64,000 nucleotides of DNA from positions 558,001 to 622,000 of the forward strand of contig QPGO01000007.1 in assembly GCA_008632985.1 (NCBI GenBank), read 5' to 3'. The notes beneath the pieces are model-generated. The model was given only the letters and a program-made list of their open reading frames with translations, searched no databases and was not told the origin of the DNA. Shown here piece by piece: positions 10,027 through 56,270 of this stretch. Each line of letters begins with the position of its first letter. Position 1 is the stretch's first letter. A program made the translations under genes and the position numbers. The DNA comes from Psammoneis japonica. Lineage: Eukaryota.

Positions 10027-10475
10027 GGATCCGAGTAAGGACTCTGCCACCCGCCGCTTCGGACTAGATCTCGGGTGATCCTAGTCAAGAACCACTAAGA
10101 AGTAACAAATCATTAGGACACTTAGGAGACTCACAGAGTAAAGCTTTCGGCACAAGCTCTGCTCCGTGCAAGGGGGGATGGGGAAAACCCATGCCCTCCA
10201 CAGGGTCCTGCAGCAACACAGGGGCTCTGCTGACAAACCGGAGCAGTGCGAGTGCCTCGGGCGTTTTCGAGTGCCAATCTCGCGAATTGTTCCCTTCGGC
10301 ATTGCGTGACGTTGGGCACAATTTTGAGAACAGAAGGTCAACTCGAACGAAGACACGCCAGGCCAAGTTTTCCCGTGCGAAAACCAAAGCCGTCGAAGGT
10401 CTTGTGCTGCTCGGTTGTCTTGAACCTCGTCTCATCGACTCCCGGGGCCGAATGAGACAGGTCGAGCTCCAATCC
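10027..10475 (-). repeat. Split direct repeat B2 (449 bp)
   Basis: Colinear with 10739-11187 from ggatccgag to aatcc. Confidence 0.95.
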
Positions 10476-10492
10476 AGGGTGAGGTGGGTGGG

Positions 10493-10739
10493 TAAAAAAG
10501 AACAATGCTTTTCCTGGCTTGTGTGATCCAGTCACGTTGATCAGGGTTCCTGCTCCAATCAAGCTGGAAAAGTGAGAAAAGAGAGAGCCGAAGTTTGGCC
10601 GGTCACAGTCGGAAGACTGGACTGGGCCATCTTGAGGCGGAAGTCCCATGCTTCCAAAATGGATCAGGCGAGAGGTCACAGTCACAGCGGGGGGTTGATT
10701 CGAGTCAGTCCGTCTCCATCTAAACTTGGGTGCGAGGAG
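10493..10739 (-). repeat. Split direct repeat A2 (~247 bp)
   Basis: Colinear with 18972-19219, with one G-run indel. Confidence 0.95.
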
Positions 10740-11187
10740 GATCCGAGCAAGGACTCTGCCACCCGCCGCTTCGGACTGGATCTCGGGTGATCCCAGTCAA
10801 GAACCACTGAGAAGCAACAAATCATTGGGATGCTTGGGAGACTCACAGAGCAAAGCTTTTGGTGCAAGCTCTGCTCCGCACAAGGGGGGATGGGGAAAAC
10901 CCATGCCCTCCGCAGGGTCCTGCAGCGACACAGGGGCTCTGCTGATGAACCGGAGCAGTGCGAGCACCTCGGGCGTTTTCGAGTGCCAATCTCGCGAATT
11001 GTTCCCTTTGGCATTACGCGACGTTGGGTGCAATTTTGAGAACAGAAGGTCAACTCGAACGAAGACACGCCAGGCCAAGTTTTCCCGCACGAAAACTGAA
11101 GCCGTCGAAGGTCTTGTGCCACTCGGTTGTCTTGAACCTCGTCTCATTGACTCCCGGGGCCGAATGAGACAGGTCGAGCTCTAATCC
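10739..11187 (-). repeat. Split direct repeat B1 (449 bp)
   Basis: Colinear with 10027-10475. Confidence 0.95.
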
Positions 11188-11301
11188 CCCCCGATGAGAA
11201 ACCTGGGCAGTGGCCACCATAAAAGCTGATCTCGGAGGCAGGAAGATGAAAGACTGCTTTCCGAGAGCCTGACGTCCCCAAGGGCTTGCGACCGTCCCGA
11301 A

Positions 11302-12924
11302 TCACATGGCCTTGGTGCAACGCAGGAAAGAGGGTAAGAGAAGAGTGACGTCGGCATGGTGTTGCCTCATTTTGTGAGCAGGTTGAGCCGCCCCCGCTCT
11401 CTCCTTCTTTTTCCAACGGTTGACGACGTCAATGTCGTCTTCAGATGCCTTTTGAGCAACAGCACGAGAATCGGAACCCCTCTGGAACGATCGGCTTGCA
11501 TCATGTTTGTCCTGTGTGTCAGCAATGGAAGTGATGTCAGCCGCGAATAAACTTGGATGGTCATCGTAGATGTCTCCCAGCACTTCATGGAGAAAAGCAC
11601 CAAGCTCTTTGGTGGATGAGGCTTTCCCGTCCACATCCAACATGGCTGGTCCGCGCGTTCGACGACGTGACCAGTGTAACGACACTGCCGTCTCCACCCA
11701 AAATCGAAGGTTAATCCCAGAACTGGTTGCATTCACACTTGGGAGGAGGTGCTGCCGCTCCCCGTGTTCTCCCTTCACTAGTCCCAAAAGTGGGATCACA
11801 ACGTAATCCGCATGTCTTGGCAGATGCTTTCCCAGAGCGCCCAGGTCCATGAGTGGACCCTCTGGGCCCCGGAGAGACAATGCGTAGCTGGCAGCGAAGT
11901 GCAACCTGCAGGAGAGGTGCACGAATCTGTCCGCCTCTCCTGGGGCCCAAAGGGCCTTCTCCTCGACCCCAGGCATGAGGTGTTGCATGACATCCACTGA
12001 CATCACCCTGTCAGGTCTCCAGTCTTGACCCATCCACCTCTTGCAGCCCGTCATGAAACGTTGAAACCAAAGCGAGGCACACGGGTCCTCACACATTCGG
12101 AGACACTGCTTTCCCTCCAAGTCTCCCAACGCCAAGGCACGTGAGTTGGCTTGGGCAGAGGCCCGCACCTGATTAGAACATGCAGTCCGCAGTTTCCGGA
12201 TCGCATCAAATTGGGTGCATGACTCCGAGTGTTTCCCCACAGTTGCAGACGCCAACACTGTCTGCACAGCCACCTCGCACCCACAGTGGTCATGGGGCGG
12301 GAGAGGACCTGGCTCAAGGCAAGGACCTGTCAGGCCCAAACGTTCAGATAAAGTCAGGCCCCGCCCAACCCTGGCCGCATTCGCTTCGACTGTTGACGAC
12401 TCCCGGCTCCAAAAAGCGTCCAGGATCACGCGGCGGATGCAAGCCAGGGCGACCTCGTCTCGAGGTGATGACGTTGCGGGTTCCCTCTGGTGTGACTTGT
12501 GAAAAACACATAAATCGCACTCAAACGCCACCACAAGATGGTCTCCAACCCGGGCCTGCACGAACTTGTTCTTGTCCTGCTGCTTCCGGAACCAAGGGCC
12601 ATCATCCAACCGTGGCCGGTCAGCCCCGAGAGTTGGGGCATCGTCGTTTTGAGGGTCGTCCGTCAGGGTTCCTCCCAGATGGAACGTCACGCTTTTTCTC
12701 AAAGCACAACACCCGGGACACCACACCTTCCGACATGCCAGCCAGACTCCTACACTGTGCACAAAATTTGCGCAGAATGTGCCCTTCGTCCACCGCAGAG
12801 TCCGCCCACACTCGTCGCAAGGACCGGTCCACAGCATGCATTTTTGGGGTTCCCCGCAGCTGCCAAGGGCTGCAAGAAACAAACGGAAAAAGGAGACCAA
12901 CCAGCAATGGCTCGAACATGTCAC
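11302..12924 (-). pseudogene. Tyrosine recombinase of the retroelement; catalytic Tyr apparently changed to His
   Basis: YALSLRGPEG (catalytic Arg), PLLGLVKGE, SRSFQRG, VNRWKKKE and MRQHHAD, where MRxxY is expected. Only 3 Tyr in 540 aa. Overlaps the end of pol. Confidence 0.85.
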
Positions 12925-15900
12925 CTGGCCAGAACGACCTCGCTCCAGCTGGGATGGTGAAAACTGGGTCCGCCGCCTTGTGCAACTGCTTCTGCCACTC
13001 TGGTGTCATCAACCATGGGCAGACAAACACATGGAAGGAAGTCTGTTGTTTAATCCTTGCGATCCGGAGCTCTTCCAGAGCAGCCCTCGCAGCGGCCGGG
13101 GGCGGGGCCCAAACCCAAGTGCCTGACTTAAAATGGGGCATCTCGATTGCCTCGTGACTCAAGCAATTCCAGCCAGCAATGTCATGTCCCTTCTGATGCC
13201 ACTCCAAAGGGGCCAGTAACTCCGGAGAGGGGGTGCCAGCCCAGGATTGGATCCACGCGAACAGAGTGGAAGAGCGAGCGGTAGCTGCAAGATGAAGAGG
13301 TACGAACGAGAGCATCTTGGCGCCGTTCATCACCCCTTCCGACAATGCTCCCCGAGAAACCCCGTCCGTACCCTGAGCTGTCATCCGACCTCCCGAGACA
13401 TGTGTGAGATGTGGTCTAATCCCATGCTTGGCCTCCAAAGCTTTCAGCCGAATAATTTGCTCGAGCAGCAGAGGGCTGGAAGAGGTGCCCTTATACCAGG
13501 CGAGTTCAGCCACCGAGTTGTCTGTGAAGAAGAATAGACACGCCCCAGTCAATTCCCCTTCCTCTCCGAGTTCCTGGATGGCGTCGACTGTATTGGACAG
13601 TTCCTTCCAATTCGAAGAATTTCCCAGCTCGTCGTCTCCCCACACACCGATCCGGAAGATAATGGTTCCGTCCGATGCTTCCAGAGACGTGCTGAGACCC
13701 TTTCCGGACGCATCACCGAACCCGTAAAGGACAGCGACGATTTTCGAAGACCGAATGATTACTGTAGTGGGGGTTGGTGGCTCCATAATTCGGGACATTG
13801 CCACCAGATCCGTGAACAGGCGAGGGACCCCCGTAACCTGCTGAGGTGGTGGACGGTCCCTTAACCCCTCGGCGACTGCAGCCGGTTCTAACCCCTGCTT
13901 CTCGGCAAGGTGATGAGTCCAGCTTGCGCACTCTTTTCCGGTCATGGCCCAACCGTCCTCCTTTTGATTTGGTCGCCACGAGTCAAGGGTCAAATGAACC
14001 CCTTTCAAAAAAGGGGTTAGAAAGGCACAAGTCATCGCGAGGTGAACCAGAAAACCCCGTTTCCGCTCTAGATCCTTAAAGTCGAACACAGGGAGGAAGC
14101 CTTCGGCCTGATCAGCATGGTGATCAAGTAAATCAGAAATGACAGCTTTGGCTTTATCCCACTTGGCCTGGGATGCCGACTGAGTGACGTCCCTGTCGAT
14201 GACCCTGAAGATGGCACCCGCCCAGGCTCCGGTTTCGACCTGAGAAGGAGGGCGCACTTTTCGGGCCGCGTTCTGTAGACCGAGGTGCTGCAAGCGAGAG
14301 GCCATTTGATGGGCCACTTGCCATGCTGCTTCCTCGCTCGCTCCCACACCTCGTAAGTCGTCCACAAACGTTTTAACATCCCCCGCAATTTCCTCCTGAT
14401 GTGAATTCCACTTCATGACGAACGGTTTGTCCATCTGAAAATTTGGGTTCCCCGGCAAGTTGAGGATCAGCTGGTCACATCCCACAATGTTGGAAGGACG
14501 TTGGGGGTCGCCTCGGGCAATCTCGTCGGCCCAACAGAAGGCTCGAACTGCTGAGCAAGGGCTGGGGCGCATCCCCATGAACAGGCGGTTCCATCGTTCG
14601 AACCAGAGTGCACCCCCCGCAGGTGGCCCAGCCGTCGGGAGATGCGACCTGAGTGGGGTTAGGTCGATCCCCGCATGTGGCCGGATGGCGGGATCCATGA
14701 AAAAATTTAAGAACATGTCCCCGAGATCGAGGTCCACCGAGAAGGTGGAGTGGGTCATGCAACCCAGAACCGAGGCGGGGGTGGGCAAGAAAAAGGAGGG
14801 TGCCCACAAGGCATCATTTGATCCGGAAGAGGTCCCATTGTAAACCATCCGGACATCCTCCACAATTTCCACCAAACGCCCATTCTGAGGCTCGACCCGA
14901 ACAGTCTTTGGGACCCAGAAATGGTCCGTTGAGCTAATCACCTTACCCTGGCAGACACATCCATGGTCTCGGACCTTTTGCATCTTGTCCACCATCCGGA
15001 GGATCTCATGCTCTGCACCCCGGATTCGCTGACGCCGACGATTGCGGGGAAGGGGGCCTTGGACAAAAATTTTAATTCCATCCCGGGCACAAACCCGCTG
15101 TTCCGGTGTGGGCCATCGCCAAAAAAGGAGGGCAGAGCCTCGGTCCCAGTTCCACCATGAACTGGCCAATGCTTGTGTCAACACGTCCGCTCCAAGGTGT
15201 GCGTCAAGTGGCAAAGGTGGGAGTGGAGGGTGATGGTAAACCCCCCCCCTGAAGACGCCCCCTAGCGTCCCCAAAACACCGACGTTGAATGGCCAACCTG
15301 CCGGTCCACGTCGGCCCACACTCCTGGTGGAGGTGGGAGAGGAAGGATCAAAGAGTCCTCCGTTGCCACCATTGGTGGGTTAGCTCCCGGAGTGCAGGTA
15401 GAGCCTTCTCAAAAGCTGGAAACAGAAGGGTGATCCGCTTGTCCCACAATCGAAGCGGAGGCGCCGCCGCATCACCCTTGGCGGCTTTCACCATTGTCAG
15501 AGACACGTCGATCCAAGCATGCAGCAAGTGCTGCTGGAGGTCAGGTAGCCACGTTCCTGCATCACGATGCGCAACGTCAACAATGGCATCCCGATCACCA
15601 ACGGTGTCCCGATTAGCCACACCCCCCGGCCCTGACAAGCATTGGGGAGCGCCGGCAATGTGAGCTTCCACGAACAACGTGAGGAGGTTCAGCGGGACAA
15701 GCCCAAAACCCAGCTCCAAGGCTTGACGCACCGGTGGCATCCGGAAGCACAGAGGGAAATCCCAGGCAGCCAACATTTCATCCACAGAAAGAGCACGGGA
15801 GACCCAACCTGTCGGAGACCGACAAGACGGGTGCACGACCGGCCGGTCCAGGAACTGCGGATCAAGATGGTCAGCTTCCGTGTAAAACTCCCCCCGGGGG

Positions 15901-16472
15901 TGTTGGGGCGATGCCGACCCGGGTGGCTTGCAATCAATGATGTGCCCAATGGATCGGTGCAGGCCATCATCAAAGACCGGAGAGGGCACCCCGTGCCAGA
16001 ACATGTTTGTGCGGAACGAAGTGACACCCCCCACCACCACATGAGTGGTCTCCCGCTGCTGGAACTGATGAAGCCCAAGGAGACTGCGCCCAAAAACTTG
16101 TCCCATGGGGATCATGACAAATGGTGAGGGTCGGATGACGTGCACCATGGATTCAAGGAATGACGGTGGACCCGACACAAAGGAGAGGTTAACCTGGGCA
16201 GCAAGATGCTCCACGCTCGACCAACCGACCTGGGCCATGGACGCTCCTAGCTGGCTTTGGAACACATCCACCAAGAGGGGACTCCAATGGGAACAGTCAG
16301 CGTTGTCTGAACAGAAGTGGAGTGTGGGCCATTCTTTTGGTCTGAGGGACAAAAGCCAAATTGGGGGACCGGAGGAAAGCACTGGACATGCTCCTTGAAA
16401 AGAGAAGGCTTTACGGCCTCGTGTGACATGCCTTAGATTGTCAGGCCTGTCAACCGAGACCAGACCCTCCAA
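12620..16472 (-). pseudogene. pol of the retroelement (N-terminal extension + RT + RNase H), interrupted by a TGA at ~15348 and a frameshift near a C-run at ~15245
   Basis: RMVYNGTSSG, DLDLGDMFLNF, MGMRPSP and FVDDLR (RT). YGFGDASGKG, SSNWKEL, FTDNSVAE and QGTDGVSRG (RNase H). Confidence 0.9.
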
Positions 16473-16496
16473 CGGTTCCTCCGCTCCCCATGGGCT

Positions 16497-18959
16497 TCAT
16501 TTCTTGTTCTCAAGAACCTTGAGGCGCCGCGTTAGTTCCTTCACTTCCATCCGCAATTTCCCAAGTTCCATGTGAGCCGAATCCCCCCGGGCCTGTGCTG
16601 ATTTTGCCTCAGAACTCGCGTTCTTGGCTTTCTCCGTCAATGTCTGGACCGAGGATTGCAAGTCTGTAACTGCTTCAAAACCTGAGTTGGTTGCGAGGAA
16701 CTTGATGCATTCGGACGCCATCGAGGGGTGATCAGCGAAACCCATGGAAGTGCACTCCACCACAATGTCCTGGGTTCTAAACACAGCCCACAAGATTTTG
16801 CTGCACACAGCGTCCGGGTCCGTGCCTGAAATAGAGGTAAAGACCCCCAAGCGCGCCTTGTGAATGTCCTCAAAGATCCGATGGGTCAATTTTGAGGTCA
16901 ACGACCACGCTTGCTTGTTCGAGAATTTGCTCAGATCAGTGAGGGAAGCGCAAGTGGAGTCGATGAATTGAATCAGAGCACAAAGGAAAGCCACCGATTT
17001 TGACAACGCGTCGCGCACCACCTGGCCCTCAAACGTGCCCGGTCTAATCCGTTGATTGATGTCCTCCACAACGTCATTTTCCGTAGAGGCGATTTTCCCC
17101 TCAATGAAATGCTTGGTTCCCACATTGCCAGACGACCAGTGTTCACAAGACTCGACCTCATCCAGGCAAGAAGGATGCAACCCCAAGGTCTGGGCCGACT
17201 TTGCCGATCCCGAGTCAAAAATCCGAGGCATTCAGCATTGGAAACCAGCCAACGTTCTCGCGTCTTCCTCGGTCGCGATGTTCATGCTCATTCGCTTGGC
17301 CCACTGCGACAAAAAGTGATGCAGAGCGGTGGGCTCGATTCCCTTGATCCGGTCCAAGAGCAACACGACATCGGTTGAGCACCCATGCGCCCTCGAGGGG
17401 AAATGCTGTGTCATCCAAGCTTGACACTCCTCGTAGGATGACACGCCAACCCCCGAGAACTCAATGGCGGACTTGTCCGATTTTGCTCGTAATTCACTCA
17501 CAGCACGGTCTAGACGAGTGAGGCGTGTGTCCACGGACCCTTGATCAAATGAAACACCTGGAGGTGCAAACCCCGAACCACACTGCGATTCGATCAACCT
17601 GACCTTGGAAGTGAGCTGCGTGCAAACCCGAAGCATGTTCTTCTTCATGTTCTCCAGATCCGTGCGGCCAGCAGCAGATCCCAACCGATCTTGCATGCAT
17701 TGGAACCTCTCGTTGAACGTCCTCACCAGATTGTTGGATTGAGTTCGCCACCCCGTCTCCACTTGCGTGACACGCTCGACCAGGTCCGGAACTTGGGTTC
17801 CGCTTTCCCTGGATGCCACGTTCGCCAGAGCACCCCAAAGAGCAGGGGCGAGCAGAGTCTCGTCGAACCCCTGGGTCGGCTCCCCCAGAGCCGCGTCTAG
17901 TTGATCCAGCTTCCGACTTAGAATCTCAACCATGGACTCCGCAGCGTGGAAGCACTTGCCAGCTTTGTTGCCGAAGTCGGCTGGTGCCTCCCCGGCTTGC
18001 CTCAACCCATCCTCGGTCGATTGCACCACACGGGCCAACGCGGACGGACTTTTATTAGCCGCCAGGAACTGCGCAGGGGCAGCGAGCATTTGTTTTTCGT
18101 ACGGCGTGAACCTGTCCAGGACGGTGTCTTCTTGAGGAGTCGACGGCTCCGGCCACTGTTTACGAGCCGGTGTCTTGAACTCGGCCGCTCTTTCATGCTC
18201 CCCAAGGGCAGGTTCGACCTCGTCCTCGGTGTAAAAGGGCTCACCATTGCTCAGGACCAAGAATTTTTGCCGCCAACCGGCTGGCGCATCCGACTCGGCT
18301 TCCCACTTGACCAAAACCTCACCGGACATGTTCGCGCCGTTCAGGATGGGTTGGCAAAATCCCGCATCCGGGGACTTGAGAATTGCCATCACACCCGACG
18401 CCGGAATGTGCATCTTGCCGCCCTTGTGCTTCACGTTACACTCGCTTGCCTTCTTGAGACAGAAGGTGGCTCCTCTGCCCTTGATCCCTGAGCACCGAGG
18501 TGCTCCAACAGTCTCCAGCCAGGTGATTCGATGACGAGGCACATGCGAGGACAAAGAGGACGTACCTTCCCCCTCCGACTCGACCGCACCTCCGACATCA
18601 CCTGCTAAATCCCGCCCAAAGAAACCAACCCAAGACAAGCGGGTTTCCCTCTGAACCGGGCGGGATGCGTCTCCTTCCAAAACGTGAGTTCCTGGAGGGT
18701 GGGAAATGACTTCCCCTGGCTCCGCTCTGTCAATGTCCGATTGGGGATGACCAAAACCCCCCGAAATGTCATCGCTTGTGCCCCGAGGATTTAAGCCCTC
18801 GTGACCCCCCCCCTGACGCGCAGCCCCAGAAGGGCGAGCCTGAGGAGAGGGAGCCGCCGGAGAGCTCAACGAGAAGGGCGAGACAACATCCAACTCGAGT
18901 TGATGAGCTAAATCAACGAACGCATCATCTGAGACACCCGAGGCAAAGAAATCCGACAT
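16497..18959 (-). pseudogene. gag-like ORF1 of the retroelement with one in-frame TGA at 17232-17234
   Basis: The 575-aa and 244-aa ORFs are in the same frame and abut. Cys/His cluster (CSG..FCLK..CNVKH) and C-terminal coiled coil. Starts just inside A1. Confidence 0.8.
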
Positions 18960-18971
18960 GACAAGAGAGAC

Positions 18972-19219
18972 TAAAAAAGAGTGATGCTTTTCCTGGCTTG
19001 TGTGATCCAGTCACGTTGATCAGGGTTCCTGTTCCAATCAAGCTGGAAAAGTGAGAAAAGAGAGAACCGAAGTTTGACCGGTCACAGTCGGAAGACTGGA
19101 CTGGGTCATCTTGAGGCGGAAGTCCCATGCTTCCAAAATGGATCAGGCGAGAGGTCATGGTCACAGCGGGGGGGTTGATTCGAGTCAGTCCGTCTCCATC
19201 TAAACTTGGGCATGAGGAG
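18972..19219 (-). repeat. Split direct repeat A1 (5' end of element)
   Basis: Colinear with 10493-10739. Confidence 0.95.
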
Positions 19220-20900
19220 CGACAGAAATTGCAGCGCGCCAGCTGCCGGCACTCCGCCGTTCGGCCTTTCTGGTCATTCCCCTTGCATTCCCACCCCTTG
19301 TCTTCTTGCTGTCTTCACATCATGAGATCTTTTGGCACCTTGTTGGTTCAAACTGCCATGCTCTCATCCTCAGTCAACACTGCTTGGATGATGCTGAAGA
19401 CCGTTTTATTTGCAGCAGCTCTGTCTTCCACCAGCAGGCCAGCCTCATCCTCTGCACTGGGGCCGCACCTTTTGCATTTTTGCCGCGCCATCAGTGGAGC
19501 TTTGACAGGCAAGGAGAGAGGGGGGGGTGGGGTCCAAACAGCCAGTTTGCACAAGACCAGGCATGCTTGTTCAATCAAATGACAAACCAAAGTGAGATTT
19601 GGCCTGGGAGGATGTGTTGGCAAACAACGGCTTTTCTGCACAGAATGTGGTCTTGTGCACAAGGCAAGCTTGTGCACGCTTTTTTGCACAAAGCTGCCTT
19701 GCTCCACTGACAGCTAAGATCTTCAACCCTGTGCCACAAACAGCAGCTCTTCCCTCTCACCCTTGGCATTTTTGCTGCTGGCTTCTTGCAATGCGAGTTG
19801 GGTCAAACCTGCTCTTTCCAGCTGCGAGCTCTTGGGAGAGAGAGGCGGCAGAAACAATGGCAGGGGCAGGGGAGCACAGCTCATTGCTGAAAAGTTCTTG
19901 ATTTCACTCACCTGCTTTGTTGGCTGAGAGATGGCCCTGCTCCAGGGGCTCTCTCCCGCTTCCCTTTTTTTCCAAAGTGCTCTGCCCTTTTGTGGGGCAT
20001 GTGTGCTCTCTTTTCAAAAAGCAAGCGGCCCTGCCAGAGAGAAGGGCTCCCAGCCTGTTTCAGCCCCAGGTGATGCACAATCCATCATGCACAGGCTCAA
20101 TTTTTGTCTCAGTTGGGCACAAGGAACTCTTTCAAATTTGAAAGTTTGGTCGTTTCAAAAGTCGAAAAGAAAGTGCACAAAAAAAAAACAAAAGTTTTGT
20201 GTGCACTTGCCCCTTGATTTGGGAAAGAATCAATTTTGAAGGAGCCCATTGTGCCAAATGCAAAAATGGCCCATTGATGGATTTTGCACACCTGCGCGCA
20301 TTGCCTGGAGTTGGAACACGCCCCCCCAAGAGGCGCAAGCCGACCTTGTTGTTTTTTGCATTTTTTTGAGCTTTGACAGCCTCTTCTTTTGTTGCCAGCA
20401 GTCTTTGCTTGAAGGGCTTCCTTTGTGCAGACTCTCCTCCTCCCCTCTGCCCTCTGGGGGCTTGGTGCCAAACACGCACAAATGGCAGCACACACACACT
20501 TTTCTTGCACCCCTGCGCCACACAACCAGCCGGCCGGCAGTGGCACGGGGGCGGACATCTGTGCCCTCTGCCGGAGGGGGCAGAAGTGCATTTCCTGTTG
20601 CTTTTGGCCAAGAATGCTGCAGGCTGCAGACAGAGAAAAAAAAGCGTCACTGTGAACGAACGAACGAACGAATGGACCAAGCCAAAGTCAAAGTGGTGGC
20701 GTTTTTGCATGCCGTGTGTGATGATGTGAGCGGCGGTGGAGGGGGGCGGGGAGACGCAGCCACACAGTCACGACTAAATTGGTCGCGGAAGCCTTCCGAC
20801 GCCGCAATCATCCAACGATCAACGCGTGTCCTCCAGTCCTGTGCTGTGTCCCACGGCATCCTTGCCTTGTGTGAGGTCAAGATGACAGCGGGCGAAGTGG
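19220..20900. other. Unidentified TpA-depleted relic sequence
   Basis: Only a few TA dinucleotides seen in 1.7 kb (e.g. ~19407, 19715, 20775). No recognisable domain. Short (CGAA)n at ~20657. Confidence 0.6.
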
Positions 20901-20917
20901 CAGACGTGCCGAGAAGC

Positions 20918-23393
20918 ATGAAGCTTTTCTATTTCTTGTTGTTTCAGTTGCTGTGGAGAGTCCGAGTCGTTCGTTGTCCCACCACCTTCTGGTCGAGGAG
21001 GGAGATTCGGCTTTGATGCAGATGCAATCGAAATTGTGAGGCCGATAATTCTCCCACAGACAACGTGGTAGCCTCAGAAAACAGTGTTGAAGACGATCTG
21101 GGATTTCTTGTGAAACGAGGGGATCGTCGTTTGTTTTTTGGATCTACTCTGGTTGCTGTCGGAACGTGTTGGGCGGTGTTAACGCGCGTGCCTATGAGGA
21201 GCAGACGGAGCAACCATTCCCCTGGGAAGCCAATCCCATAATAAGCGTTTCGGGACAACCGTGAAAGATGCCGAAACCAAAGGTGGATACAACAAGGCCT
21301 TTGTAACCTATCTCGCACGCTTCCTCTTGACTTTTGATTCACGTTGTCAAAGCTGGTGGTTTCGAACAACGTTTCCAACCGATAGCGACGCGGAAACCAT
21401 TGAGAAGATGCGAATTGACCAGTTTGCCTCTTTTGCTGCATCCGTAGAAGTTGGATTGTTGGAAGACTACAATGGAAAAGCAGATGTTTTGTTGAAGAAA
21501 CTTGTACAGCGTTATGGTCAGGAAGGAACCAGCCCACAGCAAGTTCGGCTCGCTAAATCTGCACGTCGACACATTGCCCTAATGTTTGGGTTGCTGGAAC
21601 GCATACAACCAGTAAAGGATCTCACGGAGCTGCTAGCTTCCGTCGACAATGGAAAAATCAAAAACGTTAAGATGATTGGTTCTAGAATACGGGGGTTTGC
21701 GTCGCCACCAGAGTTGATTTTTCCACAGCCGCCAAACGGCACTTCCGCAGAAGGCAGAGCGGTGATGAAACCTACTGGACGTCTACTTGACATTCAAGTG
21801 GTTGATCCTGGATCAGGATACTCGAAGCAGCCGATTATTTCCATTGAAAAGAGAGAGTCGTTTAATGGGACAGAGGCCAGATTTCAGGTTGTGATGAGGG
21901 ATGGAGGGATAAGCAAGGTCAAACTTCTCGATGAAGGCTCCGGCTACTTTGATCCTCCCACTATTCATATTTCAGAGCCTTCCGAAGGCGGTAATATTGC
22001 AGTGTTGCAGGCAAATCTTGACTTCCAGATAAGCGGTATTGAGATCACCAATGAAGGGTCGGGATATGCAGTGGAGAGACCCTTGGATATCAAGTTGGAA
22101 AAAGATGTGGTTGTAGCCACGACATCTCCTCAAGCCGACACGAGCAGTTTCACAGGCTTTCGTAGAGACACTGACAAAGAACAACTGACAAGTTTACAAA
22201 TTCAGTTCAACGAACGAAATCATATCAATGCCGCCATGGACGACAGTAGCCTCCCGCCTCTGCCCATTTGGAGTGGAACGTCGGTGTCGTCACAGCTGTT
22301 AAAGCTCTTGCCTGCAGGTGTGGGGCTAGAATATGACTCCAGTCTCAAACGATACGTCATTGCCGTGGATTCTACATTTACAAAGAAATATCCCTTTTAC
22401 TCCGGTAGTCGCCGTCCACTGGGGTTGGAGTTTGGCCCCAGGGGGCGAGCACCAATCGAACGAGACATGGAATTGTCGCTTTCCCAGTATATTAGGTTTG
22501 GTCTGTCAGGAGCGGTATGTGCATCTGGTGTGCATCTTACGCTCACACCTCTCGATGTTGCAAAGACGAAGCTGCAGGTTGACCCTGAGAAGTACAAAAA
22601 CGTTGCAACATCATTTTCCATCATTGGAAAAGAAGAGGGCGTATCTACGTTCTTCACTGGCTGGCTTCCCACCCTTCTGGGTAATTTTTTCAGTGGGGGT
22701 ATATTGTACGCCTTGACTGAAACCATCCGGCGTTCGTTGTCTGAAATGGCGGGTATGGACGCCGCAAACTTAGAAGTCCCTATAATTTTGACGGCTTCTG
22801 GAGTTGCGGCAGCCATTGGCGCTATTATCATTTGTCCGTTTGAAGCGGTTCGAATTCGAACTGTAGCTCAACCGGATTTTGCTGAAAATTCCGGTGCTGT
22901 ATTACGACGTATGCTAAAAGAGGAAGGCTCTCAGTCGCTATTCAATGCCGTTCCTGTTTTCCTAGTGCGCAACATTCCGTACGCCATGACAAAGTTCACA
23001 ATATTTGACCTATCAACGGAGCGTCTATTTGATATGTTCCCTTCGGCACAAGAGGAACTCAGGCTGTCTCTCCTGGTTTCACTGGCTGGTGGAATATTGG
23101 CGGGCTCAGCCGCGGCAATCGTGAGCAATCCCGCAGATGCTGTGATAAGTGAGCTGAAGAAGACAAAGTCAGACATCTCGCCTCAAGAGGCGATAACCAA
23201 CATGTTGGAAAGGGCTGGTCCTTCTTCATTTTTTGCGGGGTTGCCTCTGCGCATGCTATTCTATTCACTCGTTGGAAGCCTTACTTTTGGTGTGTATGAT
23301 AGTGTGAGGTTCGCCTTGGGTATTGGTCCGGACGACCTCAAGCTTTACCTGGACGTCCTCGGAGGGGCACTTCAGAACGCTGGACAATCATGA
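20918..23393 (+). CDS. Mitochondrial-carrier-family protein (phosphate-carrier-like) with long N-terminal extension; 5' part has small frame breaks
   Basis: Three carrier signatures PLDVAKTKLQ, PFEAVRIR and PADAVISEL in ORF 21261-23393. Upstream ATG 20918 gives a hydrophobic signal (MKLFYFLLFQLL), then an ES-FVVP segment. The duplicate at ~31155 carries the extra T that joins the upstream frame. Start position is uncertain. Confidence 0.85.
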
Positions 23394-23494
23394 CAAGAAA
23401 AATAGACTAGAAAACGATGAATAACGCTATTGTCAATGCTAAGTATTGTGACGTTGCGTAAATTTTCGATATGATCGGGCTCTACATGTTCCAT

Positions 23495-31561: not shown

Positions 31562-31664
31562 CAAGAATAATAGACCAGAAAACGATAAATGACGCCTACT
31601 GTCAATGCTTAAGTAGCGTGATTTTGCATTTATTTCCGAAATGATCGGGCTGTTCATGTTCCAT

Positions 31665-40430: not shown

Positions 40431-40766
40431 TGTCTCCAAAAGAGAGTCCCATGAGGTCTCCTGAGCAACTTGTTGCACTTGCTTGGCAGTCTGTGTTGGC
40501 TGTGGTCTGCCTGGGTGTCAATGTAAATGCAACAATCACCAAAATGACAGGTGTCCTTGACACCACTCAATGGTGATCATGTGAACCAAATGCTTCACTC
40601 CAAAAAGTGCTGAGGATAAAAACACATGTGCAGGGAATGTGGTGATGGTCATGATCTCATCAAAGAATGTCTCATCAGCTGCTCACATCAGGGTCAATGT
40701 CCTTCTCTTCAAATCATCCGGGTTGCAGGCAATCACATCTGGGTCACTTGTCTTCTCAGCTCAACA
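40431..40766 (-). repeat. 5' LTR
   Basis: Aligns with 34189-34615 and is adjacent to the PBS-like motif. Confidence 0.8.
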
Positions 40767-41463: not shown

Positions 41464-41750
41464 TGTTGAACCACCAAAAGGAAATCCCATTGGGATTTCT
41501 GTGTTGCTTGTCACACTTGCCTTGTTGTCTGTGTTGGCTGTGGGTTGCCTGCAGTGTCAATGTGCGGCCTTCAAACCAAACCAAAACACGACAAGTGTGT
41601 CTCTTGAGAACGAATGACAAATCATGCAAACCAAATGATTCACTCCAAAGAGTGAGAACAAAACATGACAATTTCCAGTGAGAGATTGACAATGTCAGAG
41701 ATTGCTTCAAGTGGAGTCATGCTGCAGGCCACGTTGGAGGTCAAACATTT
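41464..41750 (-). repeat. Diverged solo LTR related to the Copia LTRs
   Basis: Shares cacttgccttg, tgttggctgtgg and atgattcactccaaagagtgagaa with the LTRs. Boundaries approximate. Confidence 0.6.
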
Positions 41751-42226
41751 GTCGAGTGTCTTTCCCTCGATTGACCCTGGGTTCTCTTCTTGTGCACCCC
41801 AGTGCTCCAACATGTGGTGTGCGATGACATGCATGGGGCTCACCTGGAATACATTGCAATGCACATAGAAACACACAGAAGATGACAGTAGAATCTATGC
41901 AAAGCTGGCTGCGTTTGAGGCACTTCCCTCTTTCCTTTGGGGTGTCTAGACCTAAAAGAGGCAACCCACTGGGACAACCAGACAAAAAACCCTCATAACC
42001 TCGATCTAATGGGCCGTTGCCGGTCGCCAGCATACCGTACGTACCGATCTTGATGCCGACCACCTATCAGACATCACATCATCTGTGTTGTCACACTTCC
42101 ATTGATCCTATTAGAGTCTCACCAAGTGCATTCTTTTGCTGTGCAAGGTAACAGCAAAGGACTGCAGAGTGGAAAAATTGAAGAGTGTCGACTCCTTGTC
42201 GAAAATACTAGTCTGGAAAATCAACC

Positions 42227-48491: not shown

Positions 48492-49004
48492 TGTTGTGCT
48501 TGGAATGAAAGAGAACAATGTCGATAATACAAGGAGAGTTGTCGATGTGTTGCAGAACAACAGCTTGTATGTTGCAGAGCAAGTTCGAAGTTGGTCGGTG
48601 GTGCGAGGAGAGAAAAAGCGCGGGAATTCGACGTGGTGTGTGCGTGGTTTGACGGACGACGTGCAAGCGGGCGAGCTTCAATGATGACGTCAGACCGACA
48701 TTGTCAGCTCGCTCTCCGCTTCCAGCGCCAGCCAAGGGATTACTAAGGGCCCTTCCGTTACCCTTGCGAATCCTGCGAAACCTGCGAACTTCGAGGCCGG
48801 ATATTTTGATAAAAACGTCAAGGGACATTTAGTGACTTTTCTCGCATTTCCCTCGCAGAACTTCGCCCATAATTGTTGCGAACTTGCCAGTCGATTCATT
48901 CTACGTGCGAATTTGTGGTATGTTCAATCCGACTGTATGCCTCCTGAGAGGTGCATCACGAGACGCGCTCTAGAAAACAATCAACACAAAAAATCGATCG
49001 CACC

Positions 49005-50870
49005 ATGTCGTCTTCAAGCGACGGCACTGATAACACAAATGGCACCAACCAAGTGCCACCAATGCAAGACAGCAATAATGGTGGTATGCCTTATGATAAG
49101 GACATGGGGCTTGTGCCAACCCCTCACCTCTTTGATCAAAAGCTGTTCATGTCCTTGCATGTTTGTGACGGCGAAGAACTGTCTGCAGAAGAAAAGACGC
49201 TTGCGGACGCGAGCATCATGTCAATGAAAGTGGCCAGTCTCAGATCTCTTTGCCATAAGTGTAAGTGTGTTCGTGATGACAATCCCACACCAAAAAACGT
49301 TTCCACCACAGGCAATTCTGGCCACTTGAAGAAGCGTCTGATGACGTGGTTCTGCGTCTTCCGGCAGGAAGAAGCATGCATCGACAAGTGCCCCTTCAGC
49401 GCTTCCAAGAACTGGAGCCAGGCAGAAGATTCTCGCATCATTGAGATTTTAAGTGACCCGACCTTCCAGAAACCCCTCCAGCACCTTCACCAAAAGGCTC
49501 CACGTGTTGTGCTTGACGAAGGCGACCCGCCCCTCATGTCTGTGTGCCGACAATTCGTTGCTGTTTTGTGCAACAATTTTGACAAGTACAAACCAACCCA
49601 TCGGTTTCCAGATGACCCACTTCTCAAAGCCTTCAATCCCAATGACAAGACCATTTCTTCCCGTGCTCCAGATGTGTTGAAATTGAGGGTTGGACAGCTT
49701 CGCAGCAGGTTGACAGTGGCGCACAAGGTCGGCACGAAGAGCGGCTCGGATCCGGAAGGTTTTGAGAATGCTCTTGATCTGACTGACCCACTGGACCAAT
49801 CCATTCTCTGTTGGTGGAAGGTAATTGACCGAAATGGTGATTCATCTGTTCTCAACAAGTTTGCACGCCTCCTCCCAGGTGGCTGTGGCGTTGACTCGTC
49901 GGATCCCAGCACCATTCAACGCAGCCTGGACGCCGCCAACTCCATCTTGCGCAGCAGGGGAAAGGGTGACAGCTCCTCCAGCAAGTCACAGAGCATGTCT
50001 GAAAGAATCTTGAATGCAGTCAGTGAGATGAAAAGCGACATGATGAATGAGGAAAACAAGGAGAACATGTTTTTCTTGCAGCAGAACAGAGACCGCGCAC
50101 AGAACAAGTCGGAGCGACTGGCCGACGAGATTTGGGCCATGAGGTGTGGAAAGGCTGGTGACTTGAGCAAGCGTGAGAGAAAGATCAAGCAGCACAAAAG
50201 AGCCCGGAGTGAGTGCGAAGAGCTTGAGAAAGAGGTGGCGAAAGCGCGAAAAGTTGAGTTGGACAGCGACATTGAGCACGACGACGCTTCTTTTCTTCTG
50301 TCTGTGCCATCCAGCAGCGGCGACGATGAGGTGAGTGCCTTGTGTGTTCTTTGTGCTGTTTGTGATGTCAATGATTTGCACCAACTCAACCTTTGCTGCA
50401 AACACAAGAGCCGCCAATGCTGCGCAAGGAACAAATCCAGGGAAGTCTCTGCGGGGAACTGCTCCGATGGCCACGACCGAGGGAATGAGTCTACAGAGCT
50501 GGAAGAAGATGTCCAATCTGACAGCAAGAGCGATTCACGCAATGAACCAGTGCACTGCGGCTACATAGAATGCAACAAGCGGAATGAGCCGGTTGGAACA
50601 AAAGACGAGGCGGAACACCACGATTTCAACTGCTCGGATTTGGGTTCCTGGTCTTCAAACATGTGCTCCAACTTTGAACATTGTGGGCATCACTTGCATC
50701 GTGTTGGTTGCAAAGCTCACCTTGACGAAGATGACCCTACTTCCCTGACTTGTGGGCACCCTGATTGCACTGGCGGGTCGGAAGTTTGTGCATTTGCATC
50801 GTGTGCCAATGTGGACAACAACACCACGGATGGTGATTTTCCGTCTTCAGACAGCAGTGAGTGGAATGTA
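49005..50870 (+). pseudogene. Harbinger accessory Myb/SANT-like DNA-binding protein; probable intron from 50331; 3' end uncertain
   Basis: NWSQAEDSRIIEIL trihelix-like motif and coiled coil. GTGAGT donor at 50331 is read through in the ORF track. Tyr-poor and Cys/His-rich. Confidence 0.7.
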
Positions 50871-50899
50871 ATGCATTTAACACCATTTACAGAATCACA

Positions 50900-52430
50900 G
50901 CTTTCTTATGGTACAACTTTTACTTCTACAACCCTCCAGCCAGCAGATCCGAATCGGCATTTATGCATCGCAACGATCCCGCAGGTGCGCGCCAAAATCT
51001 TGTGGTGCGTCTTGCTCAAGTGGGCGTTGCTTTAGAAGAAATAGGAATTATGGCACAGTCAATGGCAATGACATCATCTATAGAATAAGAGCTTTCTAAT
51101 GATGTTAATTTTATTTCCATGCCCTCAGCAGATCCGAATCGGCATTCAGATGTCCTGCCGACCCCGGTTGCGCGCCAAAATCCCAGTGCATTTTGCTCAA
51201 GCAGGTGTTGCTTTATAAGAAATTGGAATTGTGGCACAATCAAAGGCAAAAACATCATCTATAGATCAAGAGCTTTCTGATGATGTTAGATCTGCTTCCA
51301 CACCCCGAGCAGATCGGAATCTGCATTCAGACATCCTACCGACCGGCACTTGCGCACCCGGGTCACATTGCGTTTTGCTTGAGCAGGTGTTGCTTTAGAA
51401 GAAATTGGAATTATGACACAATCTATAACAATAACATCATCTAAAGAGCGAGAGCTTTCTAATGATGATACTTTTATTTGGATACCTCTAGCAGAACCGA
51501 ATCGGCATTCAGACATCTTACCGATCGCGTAGTTGCGCTCAAAAATCCCAATGCGTTTTGCTCAAGTAGGCGTTGCTTTATAAGAAATTGGAATTATGGC
51601 ACAATCAATGGCAATAACATCATCTATGGATTAAGAGCTTTCTAATGATGTTAATTTTATTTCCATACCCTGAGCAGATCCGAATCGGCATTCAGATGTC
51701 CTACCGACCCCGGTTGCGCGCCAAAATCCCGTCAAAACGCCTCTCGCGCAATGCGTTTGCTTAACTAGCCGTTGCTTTAAAATAACTAGGAATTATGGGA
51801 CAATCAATGGCAATTACATTATCTACAGAACAAGAACGAGGGCTTTCTAATGGCACTACTTTCATTTCCATACCCCAAGCGGATCCGAATGATCAACAAT
51901 CGGCAACCCGTAGAGTTGCGCGCCAAAATCCTACTGCGCTTGCTTAACTAGCAGTTACTTTAGAAGAACTCGGATTTATGGGACAATCAACGGTAACTAC
52001 ATTATCTATAGAACAAGAACAAGAGCTTTCTAACAGTGCTACTTTCATTTCCATACCCCAAGCAGATCCGAATCATCAACAATCGGCATTCTGACAACCA
52101 AACAACCCCTGTTTTTGGCGCCAAAATCCAATTGCGTTTTGCTTAACTAGCTGTTGCTTTAGAAGTACTTGAGCTTAGGCAATGAAAAATGGCAATAAAA
52201 TCATCTACAGGACGAGAGCTTTCTAATGGTATTACTTTCATTTCCATGCCACAAGCAAATCCGAATCTGTGTTCAATTATCCAAATAACCCGTAGTTGCA
52301 CGCCAAAACCCTGCTCTACGTGCTTAACTAGCCGTTGCTTTAGAAGAACTAGGAATTATGGGACAATCAATGGCAATTACATTATCTGCAGAACAAGAGC
52401 TATCTAATGGTTCTACTGTTATTTCCACAC
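50900..52430. repeat. Tandem array of ~8 units of 181-199 bp inside the Harbinger element
   Basis: gcttta(g/t)aagaa anchor recurs at ~51029, 51210, 51392, 51576, 51775, 51957, 52156 and 52338. gcagatccgaat and agagctttcta recur in register. Confidence 0.92.
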
Positions 52431-52488
52431 ACACATCAGATCGGTTCTCTAGTTGTGATTCGATGCCATCGATGCCGACACCGCATTT

Positions 52489-53848
52489 CTGCCTGCGAGG
52501 TGGGCGAACAATGTTGGCAGTTCTCAATGAATCTGTGATCTGTTCCCGAATTGGACACTGCCCATGATGCACCCGTGGGATGGCTCTGTCTTCAAGCCAG
52601 CATTGGTCCATGGGATGCAGGTTGTGGTCGTACCCCATGGGCTCGTCTGAGGAAAGGAATGGCTCACCCTGTCGATGCTGACCCGGTCCGGTGTTGACTG
52701 AAGGAACGTACAATTCATCATCATCAACACCAAGGTCTTTCAGGAAATTGTGCAGACGAAAAATGGATTGAATTGCCACCGGACACCTGCGCAATGGAAA
52801 AAGCAAAGGACGCCAAAAAATCCCAAACTTCTGGCAGACATTGCCCCACATGCGCTCAATGCAATTGTGGTGGCCTTTGTTCAGACAAACAGTTGAAGGC
52901 ATCCTTGTGTGGCTCACGCTCTGCAAGCCCAGTGCCTGGCCATGGACCAACCCGATTTGCACCACAGCCATGAGCCTCATCCAAAGAGATGCAGCAGTGC
53001 CTCTCGGTGCCTCGACACTTGATTCGTGTTTCATTCTCCCATCTTGTGGCTGTGGTGCACAATTCCCAAGCTGTCCTGTCATGAGCATTTCCTGTGGCAT
53101 GGACGTCCAACACTCGACACTTTAAGACTGCATCTGCAATCGCTTGAACACTGATGGCTGGAAAACCCTTCCGATTGACATGCGCCATTGGATTCTCGCA
53201 TTCATCGCTGCCTGGCATGCGAATTCTCACAGCACATCCATCTCCTGCTCCCACATGACCAATGTGCAATTCCGGAAGGTTGTTCTTGTTTTGTAAAAAT
53301 TGATTTGCCAAGTGTCGCAGCTCTGGCTCTGTCGTGGGAAAATGTGCAGTGCCAACACCGGCTTCAACAATGGCTTTGAAAAAATCAAACAACGCACCCT
53401 CCACACTCGTGTGACCCAAGCCAAAAGCAAAAATGAGACCATCCAAAGAACAACCTCCAGACCCCATGCAGCCGAGATGCACCTTTTCATCGACCGCAAG
53501 TGGCCTCCGGTCGCAATCCTGTCGGCCGGCCATGTTGGCATCCGACAACTTCGGCTTCAAGTGCGGACACAATTTGTTTCGGAGGCACTCCATGGTGTGT
53601 GGAGGCATTCTGAAAACAGTTGCAAATTCTCCGGTGAGCAAGGAGGCACAGCGTGAATCGAGCAAGTCCCGAAGCATGCATCTCGCATGAGAATGCTCGT
53701 GTGATGATTCTCGTCGTTCAATGGCATCAGCGTGCAGACACAACACAGCAATGAGTTCTGCCAATGGAGCCATCCTCTTTTTCTTTTTCCTTGGTCTCAT
53801 TGCCACCAATGCATTGAGATCTGGTGCATCTTGATCAAACGAAGACAT
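52489..53848 (-). pseudogene. Harbinger DDE transposase (DDE_Tnp_4/HARBI1-like); frameshift at ~52885
   Basis: VGAGDG, NRKGFPAISVQAIADA, GNAHD, LDEAHG, IERMWG..KFGIFWRPL and RLHNFL. Zero Tyr in the 330-aa ORF. The original stop is possibly the CAG at 52491-52489. Confidence 0.88.
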
Positions 53849-54089
53849 TGCGAGTTCGCACGAGCGTGATCGATTTGCTTTTTCTGCATCAATGGCACTG
53901 ATGCTGGTGCTTCATCACAGCGCGGTGGAAGCAAACCCCGCGCACCTCGCAGCTCTCGCCGTTGCAAATGCGAGATCAGTGACAGCATCAGAGACATCAA
54001 CATTCAGAAAGTGACATCATTTCAGATGTTTTTGAAAAATGTCATTTCGCAGGTTTCGCAGGGGTTTGCAAGGGCAATGGAACGGGTCC

Positions 54090-56270
54090 AACTGCATGCG
54101 GGGCTGCGCTGACCGCCCCCCTCAACAGCAGCGCAGCCAGATGGAGACATTCAACATCTGTCTGGATGCCGTGTTTTTGTGTGGTCCAAGAGACAAGTCC
54201 TGGGTTGAAAGATGGAACGGGGGGTCATGTCAGCAGGAGCAGCAGCAGCACCTTGCTGCCCACTCTGCTGCCAGTGTCCCTTCTGCACCACACCAAAAAC
54301 CTGTGTGAGATTGTCAGAAGTGGCACCCTCAATGTCCTGACTGCACTGGTGCCAGCTGCACTCCTCCATCAACACCAGGGCCGCATGGCAACTTCACACA
54401 TTGCTGGTGCATTTGGCACCATGTCCTCCTGCTCACAAAATCATCTTCCAATTTTGGCACCATCCTGCCCATCCACTCATCTGCCAACAGGGCAGACATC
54501 ATGCACCCAATCACAAATCTGGCTGTGCTCCATGATCCTCAGCTTCATGATCGTCAGCCCCACAAGGGTGCCACCATTGTGCAGGGCCCCTCACAAATCC
54601 ACTCCACAACTTGGTCCTCCTTCAAGACTTTCTCTGCGCAACAAAACAGAAGACATGACTGCTGGGTTTTCTGGGCTGTGCTCCCATGCAACAACAGATT
54701 GTGTTGCTTGCCCAAACTCCAGCTCGTCTGACACAGCCCCGTCAGTGTCGTCCCACAACACAGTCAGTGTGCTGACCTGGAGCTGCAGTTGGCTGCTCTT
54801 GTTGTGGCTGGAACAAGGAGATGTTGTCACTCACACCTCTTTAGAAGCCATGCATTTTGTTCAAACACTTGTTGAGTGCCCCACCACCCAAGTCATCTGC
54901 GCCAACCCACACTGTGGACCAGCCTGGCTCACCAAAACTGACATTGTGGATGGATTTTGTTAAGTCAGGGACAGAAAACTGCACCAATGTGTCAAAGTTG
55001 GGCACTGCATTTCCAATTTTGGGTGTCCAAAAGAGCCACTCACAGCTTTCATCCAGTGCTCCCCATGTGGGCTGGCCCCAAATCTCTGCTGCATTTTTGC
55101 TCAGTTGCTGAAATGACAACAGACATGGCAAGCCACCTGCTTTGTCAAGTGGCGCCAGAAACCCAGGTGCTCAGTTGAAGCTTGAGCTTCTTCCACCAAG
55201 TCAGCTGCTCAGTCATTCACACCAGCTCTCACCACCAACTCCACTGGTGCCACTGCAGAAGACTGGGCAGACCGCTGAGTGAGTGTGCACCTGCTCCAAC
55301 CACATGTGACTGTTCGCTTCTCACTCCACAGGGGGGAACATGCATGCTGGCAACCAGCCATTGATGTTTTCATCAACAACTTTCTGGCAGCCACCCAAGA
55401 CAGCAGCACACAGCACATGACACCTCAGCCAAGCAGCTCACTGAATTTTGCTCCATGCCGTGCACAATGTCCTCTCACCTTTGGTTGGCCTTGCAGGACC
55501 CTGACTGCTGCCAGGATCCAATCTCACCTGAAAAACTCTTGAAAGGTGATGCATGCTGGAGCACATGCAAAAACATCTTGTGGATCATCAACCACATTGT
55601 GCGTTGATGACTGCACTTTTTCACCATGCTGCTTCCATTGCCCAGCCAAACTGTTGTTGACCATGCTGACCATGCAAAGTGCCTGGTCATCTGCAAACGG
55701 CACAGCCTCATTGGTGAACTGTGCTTCATGATGCTTGCCACACTCAGAGCCTGTGGACTCTTCAACCATCTGCATGAAGCACTGTGACACCAGAGGCAGA
55801 ACCCCCTCCAACTTGCCAGCAAGGAACTCTGCCAGACACCAGATGATTTCTGCTGGTTGCAGCACAACCTGGCCAGTTGCGCAACATGCCTCTGCTGGCT
55901 TGTCCCATTGCCTCAGCAGGTCACAGCTGGACCACATGATGCTTTGGGCAAAAAAGTGCCAGGGGACTCTGGTTCTCAGATCTGGCAGCCACCTCCCCAG
56001 CCGGGCTGTTCCAAACATTGCACCATGGTGATGTGGTCCCACTGGTCCCCAACAAATTGGTCCTCATTCATTGTGCCACCAATTCCCACCGGCCATCTTC
56101 AATCTGCTGCATTCCTGTCAGTCAATGCACCCCCCGTGGAAAGATTGCAAACTCGGACCTTGAGTTTGTCAGTGGGCTCCTGCCACTCTAGGGTCCTAAA
56201 AGCACCTGCTCCTTTTCTCTCTCTGCATGCTTCTTCTTTTGTCACAGAAATGGCTGTTTCTGCTCTCCCC
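54090..56270. other. Unidentified relic depleted of both TpA and CpG
   Basis: Saturated with TG/CA. No domain recognised. Confidence 0.6.

Follow-up and report, generated by a model that had tools for sequence, protein, structure and literature searches.

The locus and its TpA-depleted blocks

The DNA analyzed here is a stretch of 64,000 nucleotides from the diatom Psammoneis japonica (contig QPGO01000007.1 of GenBank assembly GCA_008632985.1, positions 558,001 to 622,000 of the forward strand; hereafter the window), in which five blocks have lost most of the dinucleotide TpA, a loss that we call erasure. This 64-kb stretch is nuclear DNA; it carries compact genes whose open frames are long. 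Among the open reading frames (ORFs) of at least 200 aa, Pfam recognized Macro, MATH-BTB, alternative oxidase (AOX), mitochondrial carrier, SET, GIY-YIG/CCHC, and XPB domains. The EF-hand alternative oxidase, whose top named relatives (~51-59% identity) were found in Fistulifera, Epithemia, Cylindrotheca, Cyclotella, and other diatoms, starts at an ATG at position 9716 on the minus strand.

The five TpA-erased blocks, named I1, I2, I3, I4a, and I4b in order of position, total 30,025 nt (Table 1). Their observed/expected (o/e) ratios for TA were 0.17, 0.06, 0.08, 0.11, and 0.04, respectively, compared with 0.55 in the 31 kb of window genes that served as the genic reference. Against the TAs expected at the genic ratio, 89 of 290 were present in I1, 23 of 201 in I2, 37 of 299 in I3, 10 of 58 in I4a, and 9 of 122 in I4b, which sums to 168 TAs where ~970 were expected. 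The o/e ratios of TG (1.31-1.87 in the islands, 1.14 in genes) and CA (1.23-1.97 and 1.16) were raised, and the numbers of TG and CA were about equal in each island, showing that both strands were hit. The CG ratio was 0.72 in I1, 0.70 in I4a, 0.39 in I4b, 0.24 in I2, and 0.13 in I3; the dinucleotides other than TA, TG, CA, and CG changed little. We regard the decay of CpG to TpG or CpA as a process of its own that proceeds more slowly and shows in the older islands, caused presumably by cytosine methylation. The G+C content was 55-58% in I1 and unchanged or raised elsewhere. The initial annotation, made from the letters of the sequence, had described islands almost devoid of TA next to genes with normal TA; this description held, and the edges determined here lie within ~100 nt of where it had placed them.

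Erasure also affected stop codons. A change of TA to TG or CA never makes an in-frame stop, and the stop codons TAA and TAG become CAA, CAG, TGG, or TGA. In the islands, TAA and TAG occurred 2.4 and 1.5 times per 1000 trinucleotides, compared with 8.3 and 8.8 in genes, with TGA unaltered, and 17 of the 33 window ORFs of at least 200 codons fall in islands.

Table 1 Features of the window, with positions counted from its first nucleotide
Feature	Position	Strand	Description
Tandem repeat, 84-nt (28-codon) unit	1368-1797	-	4.5 copies, ~71% alike, within ORF 1276-1926
Start of repeat copy A, 113 nt	10027-10139		unerased; 8 TAs kept; TA-normal zone upstream of the AOX ATG
I1	10140-20930		repeats A/A′ (10027-10475, 10739-11187) and B/B′ (10493-10739, 18972-19219) around a nested retroelement
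Nested retroelement, partly erased	11188-18971	-	interior of I1; carries P0121
P0121, reverse transcriptase (RT)/RNase H-like ORF	12623-15379	-	733 homologs
Gene duplication, ~90% identical, 2.6 kb	20967-21442 + 23194-25332; 30883-33505		control for repeats A/A′
I2	25600-31230		element type not assigned; decayed fragments in common with I3 (26400-27090 and 39650-40150, inverted)
I3	33840-41850		direct repeats resembling long terminal repeats (LTRs) at 34182-34523 and 40424-40748; old element
I4a	49100-50870	+	inside ORF 48948-51035 (P0243), whose first ~100 nt lie outside the erased zone
Satellite, 183-nt unit	50878-52450		~8 units, 66-94% alike; TA o/e ~0.5-0.75; CpG normal
I4b	52450-56270		PIF/Harbinger DDE_Tnp_4 transposase ORF at 52859-53911 (-)
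ORF with GIY-YIG nuclease domain and two CCHC zinc knuckles	58082-59200	-	surrounding sequence TA-normal

Retrotransposons, a DNA transposon, and a host pseudogene had been listed as the affected sequences, and this list was recovered in part: the interior of I1 is a retroelement and I4b encodes a PIF/Harbinger transposase, whereas I3 is weakly Copia-like and I2 remains without assignment. The I4b transposase had 12 homologs, all 12 with DDE_Tnp_4, the best being 68% identical. In I1, the alignment of the 919-codon frame of P0121 to its homologs still spans 92% of its length. The P0121 family yielded 733 matches and 267 confirmed metagenome stretches, yet Pfam is nearly blind to it: PF00078 was present in 1 of 120 homologs among the matches listed, and the window copy had no Pfam match. 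The family looks like a diatom-type retroelement clade that is thinly covered by present models. The RVT_2 match in I3 (36928-37434, minus strand) was weak (E 0.005, below the cut-off), and an Atlas search with an I3 ORF led to RVT_2 clusters only; judging from these leads and its flanking repeats, I3 is probably an old LTR element of the Copia type. Pfam was also run on 150 ORFs (≥90 aa) from the islands and gave four weak matches, all below the cut-off (RVT_2; DDE_Tnp_4 with Endonuclease_7; PHD_NSD; CFEM), and a tblastx comparison of the islands with the window gave nothing above noise save the repeats already known.

A possible candidate for the host pseudogene is P0243, the ORF of I4a. The first 450 of its 695 codons match a family of ~450-aa proteins without a Pfam domain (43 representatives, the best 56% identical), and the frame reads ~230 codons beyond the point where the homologs end. 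In a search for the stop codon that erasure would have removed, neither a Gln nor a Trp codon was seen at the end positions of the homologs. P0243 may be a host gene that became trapped in erased DNA, or it may belong to the adjoining Harbinger-type element as its second ORF.

Substitution spectrum of a repeat pair and fate of tyrosine codons

The two copies of repeat A align without gaps over 449 nt and differ at 34 positions. These comprise 10 single differences with TA in one copy and TG or CA in the other, 9 double differences with TG opposite CA (18 positions), and 6 differences with CG opposite TG or CA; there were no further transitions and no transversions. All 8 TAs in the first 113 nt of A are TG or CA in A′ (10739-10851). 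In alignment columns 114-449, the copies have no TA in common, 22 CGs in common, and 6 CG-type differences. Counting the 8 doubles in these columns, as many concordant hits that leave no visible difference, and 2 singles, the columns are expected to have held ~18 ancestral TAs, the same density as in the 113 nt that escaped erasure. The loss per copy in the same columns amounts to ~94% of TpA and ~11% of CpG, compared with 0 of ~540 other site-copies. From these figures, TpA would change at several hundred times the background rate and ~20 times faster than CpG decays there.

The gene duplication served as a control and keeps an ordinary substitution spectrum; it is not erased. The larger part of this duplication has 192 mismatched positions, of which 83 are transversions and 56 fall in pyrimidine-purine (YpR) classes, and its spectrum differs sharply from that of A/A′ (Fisher p 3e-16). 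Copy B of the duplication lacks 21443-23193, which is most of the mitochondrial-carrier ORF, and a transposon island follows each copy. The 480 nt of copy B that adjoin I2 have lost slightly more TAs than the other copy of the duplication (6 vs 1-2).

Both tyrosine codons hold TA, and the conserved tyrosines of the island proteins have been replaced to a large extent. When examining the 15 columns of P0121 in which at least 50% of 60 homologs carry Tyr, it was observed that the window copy carries Cys or His in 7 of them, retains Tyr in 3, and shows Phe in 3 and other residues in 2, whereas the homologs pooled over the Tyr columns have Cys or His in 40 of 986 cases (p 1.6e-6). At two columns, Cys stands where the homologs are Tyr in 58 of 58 and 60 of 60 cases. 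The I4b transposase is changed at all 7 of its conserved Tyr columns (4 His, 3 Cys) and has no Tyr in 351 aa, compared with 17-18 in its homologs. Of the 8 conserved Tyr columns of P0243, one still has Tyr and 5 carry Cys or His.

The changes at TpA are A:T to G:C transitions that occurred in place, after integration, on either strand independently, and near to saturation. A-to-G change on either strand had been proposed in the initial annotation from the presence of both TG and CA products, and the balanced counts of the two, the repeat pair, and the tyrosine columns all bear this out. Changes of A to G independent of a 5′ T, which by the initial annotation would have refuted its proposal, were not seen, with the qualification that TA-type changes carry a 5′ T by the construction of the A/A′ comparison.

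We considered that the islands might be TA-poor by origin, through selection against UpA/TA, or through GC-biased gene conversion; TA is, after all, the lowest dinucleotide in many genomes, and its ratio is 0.55 even in the window genes. The TA content of relatives of P0121 speaks to this point. In the loci of 80 relatives fetched from metagenomes, a set that is skewed to intact copies and informs on the native TA of the family, not on the process in other diatoms, the TA o/e was 0.40-0.79 in 80 of 80, and none of their 1609 1-kb windows fell under 0.31. Because these relatives have normal TpA, the family is not natively TA-poor; native TA poverty was an outcome that the initial annotation had named as refuting its proposal. 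Furthermore, 8 TAs of copy A are gone in A′, invariant Tyr codons have been converted, and biased gene conversion should also act outside TpA, whereas A/A′ has no change outside the YpR classes. We therefore attach almost no probability to native composition, selection, or biased gene conversion, three explanations that the A/A′ spectrum, the tyrosine tests, and the relatives together rule out.

Edges, gradient, and neighboring bases

The limits of the blocks were placed from the positions of the TAs themselves (those at ~20930 and ~31230 are approximate) and are sharp to tens of bases. The edge at 10140 falls within repeat A, at a distance of 424 nt upstream from the ATG of AOX, whereas the twin A′, farther inside the island, has been erased throughout; because the edge cuts one copy while the other is fully erased, the cue is positional and not sequence identity. 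The remaining islands end ~250-420 nt before the ORF of the closest gene, suggesting that active promoter chromatin shields the flanking DNA. Between I4a and I4b, the satellite is unerased, with sharp edges on both sides, and is not CpG-poor. Since the gene duplication and the tandem satellite were both spared, duplication is not the trigger. Within this window, the process spares genes, a gene duplication, and a satellite. The earlier proposal of a chromatin-domain-directed process gains from the sharp edges, one of them inside a repeat copy by the upstream region of a gene; it loses from the spared satellite, which leaves the erased DNA as something other than one contiguous domain.

These positional data bear on a further explanation, in which the RNA of the elements was hyperedited from A to I by an ADAR-like enzyme and the product fixed through reverse transcription. 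Two of the islands are retroelements, and ADAR-type enzymes prefer a 5′ U, which is general knowledge and is also cited in a recent preprint (Mettrop et al., bioRxiv 10.64898/2026.01.13.699255). However, a cut-and-paste DNA transposon is the most completely erased element (I4b, TA o/e 0.04 and 7 of 7 Tyr columns), the strands are hit equally, and the edge inside one integrated repeat copy, with its twin fully erased, points to a positional effect after integration. Accumulation restricted to retro-copies and to the sense strand, as expected of ADAR editing fixed by retrotransposition, was not what the islands displayed. The erased transposon of I4b, the symmetry of the strands, and the edge within repeat A together exclude RNA editing as the main cause, and we hold this explanation to be extremely improbable.

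Inside I1, erasure is graded. The outer parts contain 0-1 TA per 250 nt, and the nested retroelement has 10.3 TA/kb compared with 43.5/kb in the 80 intact relatives; its center (13250-14250) keeps 4-7 TAs per 250 nt. This gradient suggests that erasure is progressive, the older outer sequence having been fully erased and the nested, younger element about three quarters so.

The surviving TAs were not distributed evenly over their neighboring bases. Survival, defined as the fraction of TAs left in the interior of I1 with the intact relatives as reference, was 0 for ATAT, 0.05 for both ATAC and ATAG, 0.20 for both ATAA and GTAC, 0.23 for CTAC, 0.32 for CTAG, 0.38 for CTAA, 0.44 for TTAA, and 0.51 for GTAA, and the order was unchanged when the window genes served as the reference. 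These values are consistent with a preference for the 3′ neighbor in the order TAT > TAC ≥ TAG > TAA, and an additive per-strand hazard fits all contexts but GTAA.

The fidelity of the island sequence was examined in Logan contigs, which are built from raw reads. Contigs of run X1 (word depth 34-72) match the islands in pieces of 876-2511 nt with 0-2 differences. The window was represented in the data of one study; X1 stems from the same sample as the assembly, is possibly its source, and has no library type on record. Where other X1 contigs, from elsewhere in the run, are related to the window, transitions account for 230 of the 306 listed places that differ. Run X2 (same sample), examined over window positions 24001-43000, gave contigs on genic bins only and none on the islands, a pattern like that of a transcript library; no RNA run was among those listed for the window. 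Run X3 gave no cover, and the uncovered parts of X2 and X3 were not counted as evidence.

The X1 contigs rule out an assembly or polishing error and make an artifact of noisy reads unlikely. A sequencing or base-calling artifact, in which a true TA, perhaps carrying a modified base, is misread as TG or CA, would mimic the TG/CA doubles and the Tyr to Cys or His pattern if miscalls were resolved randomly by strand, and the sole run that bears the islands comes from the assembly's own sample. Error-prone reads, however, would not give k-mer contigs that match over kilobases at such depth with so few differences, nor would erasure be expected to be graded and context-dependent inside one element. 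The same signature is also real mutation in Illumina-sequenced lines of the alga Bigelowiella natans (bioRxiv 10.64898/2026.01.13.699255). Overall, we judge an artifact to be very unlikely.

Relation to known systems and a proposed process

In mutation-accumulation lines of B. natans, integrated giant-virus and virophage DNA undergoes TpA to TpG/CpA hypermutation (Mettrop et al., bioRxiv 10.64898/2026.01.13.699255). According to this preprint, A to G and T to C accounted for 230 of 231 new mutations in an integrated giant virus and a virophage, with each of the 230 at TpA; the mutation rate at TpA was ~1000 times the genomic rate and episodic between lines; and the genome contains clusters depleted in TpA and enriched in CpA and TpG, which are also enriched in RT and DDE domains. 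Its authors propose an ADAT2-like deaminase. The statement in the initial annotation that no system of this kind had been described therefore no longer stands. Our full-text literature search returned this preprint as the only match for TpA-directed hypermutation and no report of TpA erasure in diatoms, a result that supplements of the preprint or papers not covered could alter.

The two algae have in common the conversion of TpA to TpG or CpA, on either strand, limited to foreign or mobile DNA, an RT- and DDE-rich footprint, and, with the diatom rate estimated from A/A′, a rate that exceeds that of the remaining DNA by orders of magnitude. The three sequence-level features reported from B. 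natans were each looked for in the window. The changes went from A to G or from T to C apart from 6 of the 25 A/A′ events, CpG-type C-to-T changes that we take as a separate process; a 5′ T accompanied the 10 TA singles and 9 TG/CA doubles, with no A/G or C/T changes elsewhere; and, within this window, erasure was confined to mobile DNA. Judged by these features, the diatom is a second lineage with a very recently described kind of process. Differences are also evident. Our host is a diatom, and hence a stramenopile, whereas B. natans is a rhizarian chlorarachniophyte; the targets here are transposons, in B. natans they are giant-virus and virophage inserts; and the footprint is deeper here, with a TA o/e of 0.04-0.17 compared with 0.45 in the nucleocytoplasmic large DNA virus region of B. 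natans. A layer of CpG decay is present here, and the main text of the preprint mentions neither CpG nor diatoms nor stramenopiles. Going by that text, sharp edges, a spared satellite, and a preference for the 3′ neighbor are described for this diatom only; conversely, de novo mutations were seen in B. natans, and the diatom process is known from its footprint alone.

Other systems resemble the diatom case in part. As in the repeat-induced point mutation (RIP) of ascomycete fungi, dinucleotide-specific transitions degrade transposons in place and leave compositional islands beside normal genes. RIP, however, converts CpA to TpA and lowers G+C, whereas TpA is destroyed here and G+C reaches 55-58% in I1; RIP creates stop codons, whereas the diatom process removes them; and RIP is triggered by duplication, whereas the 2.6-kb gene duplication and the tandem satellite were spared. 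Neither of the two hallmarks of RIP tested (C to T at CpA; a duplication trigger) was found in the window, and the direction opposite to RIP that the initial annotation had noted is correct, TpA being removed and not made. Methyl-CpG decay has the same products, TpG and CpA, and forms the second layer in I2, I3, and I4b (CG o/e 0.13-0.39), but it cannot remove TpA, and the losses per copy in A/A′ (CpG ~11%, TpA ~94%) set the two apart. In animals, editing by APOBEC3 and ADAR likewise inactivates mobile elements through clustered transitions with a nearest-neighbor preference. APOBEC3 acts on DNA with C to T or G to A changes, and ADAR edits RNA, on one strand and in retro-copies only; in the diatom, by contrast, a DNA transposon is among the targets, with changes on both strands and after integration.

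Taken together, we consider it likely that a host process rewrites TpA to TpG or CpA in the integrated, probably silenced, mobile-element DNA of this diatom. For the chemistry, our leading but tentative guess is enzymatic adenine deamination at TpA with recruitment by the silent state. An enzyme would deaminate adenine to hypoxanthine in DNA at 5′-TA-3′, the hypoxanthine would be copied as G in the following replication, and the silent-chromatin or small-RNA state of the transposons would recruit the enzyme. Whatever the chemistry, the elements are disabled by missense changes (Tyr to Cys or His, and others) without new stops, and abnormally long ORFs remain; TA-containing signals would be lost too. 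Deamination of adenine to hypoxanthine gives clean A-to-G changes, and a 5′-T preference has a precedent in TadA/ADAT enzymes. In a general scan, no deaminase family appeared among the Pfam matches of window ORFs of at least 200 aa, genic parts included.

Thymine could be the base attacked instead. TET/JBP-type oxidation at TpA would produce 5-hydroxymethyluracil (5hmU) or 5-formyluracil, which mispairs with G and changes T to C on either strand; as TA to CA on one strand is TA to TG on the other, this would fit the data as well as adenine deamination does. Base J occurs on the T of TpA, on both strands, in the telomere repeats of trypanosomes, the 5hmU of dinoflagellates is concentrated at TpA, and 5-formyluracil can cause T-to-C mutations. 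On the other hand, 5hmU pairs faithfully with A, and the excision of closely opposed modified thymines would give breaks, not clean transitions. Oxidized thymine would be the less clean mutagen, and A/A′ shows no transversions, of which 5-formyluracil makes some. We regard thymine oxidation as unlikely and adenine deamination as the better candidate.

Several observations weigh against a host process of the proposed form. Erasure was found in 0 of 80 relatives from other diatoms, in the set skewed to intact copies. The untouched satellite, which may lie outside the silent state or be a later arrival, means that targeting follows no simple domain or that the array came afterwards. De novo mutations were not observed, so that the rate and the progressive character are drawn from one repeat pair and from gradients. 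The context preference derives from small counts (80 and 166 surviving TAs), the survival of GTAA (0.51) fits the additive per-strand model poorly, and, on the product side, CpG decay makes the tetranucleotide evidence on strand choice usable as a trend only. As X1 is not an independent replicate, a systematic artifact at the read level is made unlikely by same-sample data only, and an artifact would yield the same replacement of Tyr by Cys or His. With respect to the chemistry, the sequence cannot separate adenine deamination from a thymine-directed change.

A wider proposal, toward which we are somewhat skeptical, is that TpA editing of mobile DNA could be an old genome defense common to at least two lineages (Rhizaria and diatoms) of the stramenopile-alveolate-rhizarian (SAR) group. 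It would be a main and fast means of transposon inactivation in diatoms and would act through a purine or pyrimidine modifier of DNA with the preference TAT > TAC ≥ TAG > TAA, recruited by the silent state. If such a shared SAR system were real, its enzyme would be findable by comparing diatoms with B. natans.

To our knowledge, no cellular process that removes TpA from DNA was known before the 2026 B. natans preprint, a study of a single organism. Finding a near-saturated footprint in a second, distantly related lineage would show that the process is not peculiar to one alga, and its range would widen from viral inserts to ordinary transposons. The diatom locus would offer several handles: edges sharp enough for comparison with chromatin marks, an element erased in part where ongoing mutation may be sought, a flanking-base preference to match against enzymes, and a route through comparative gene content. 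For genome annotation, erased transposons without TAA and TAG look like long ORFs that belong to no family, and gene callers may mistake them for genes. Base-editing research, too, would have a use for an enzyme that converts A:T to G:C at a set dinucleotide of duplex DNA.

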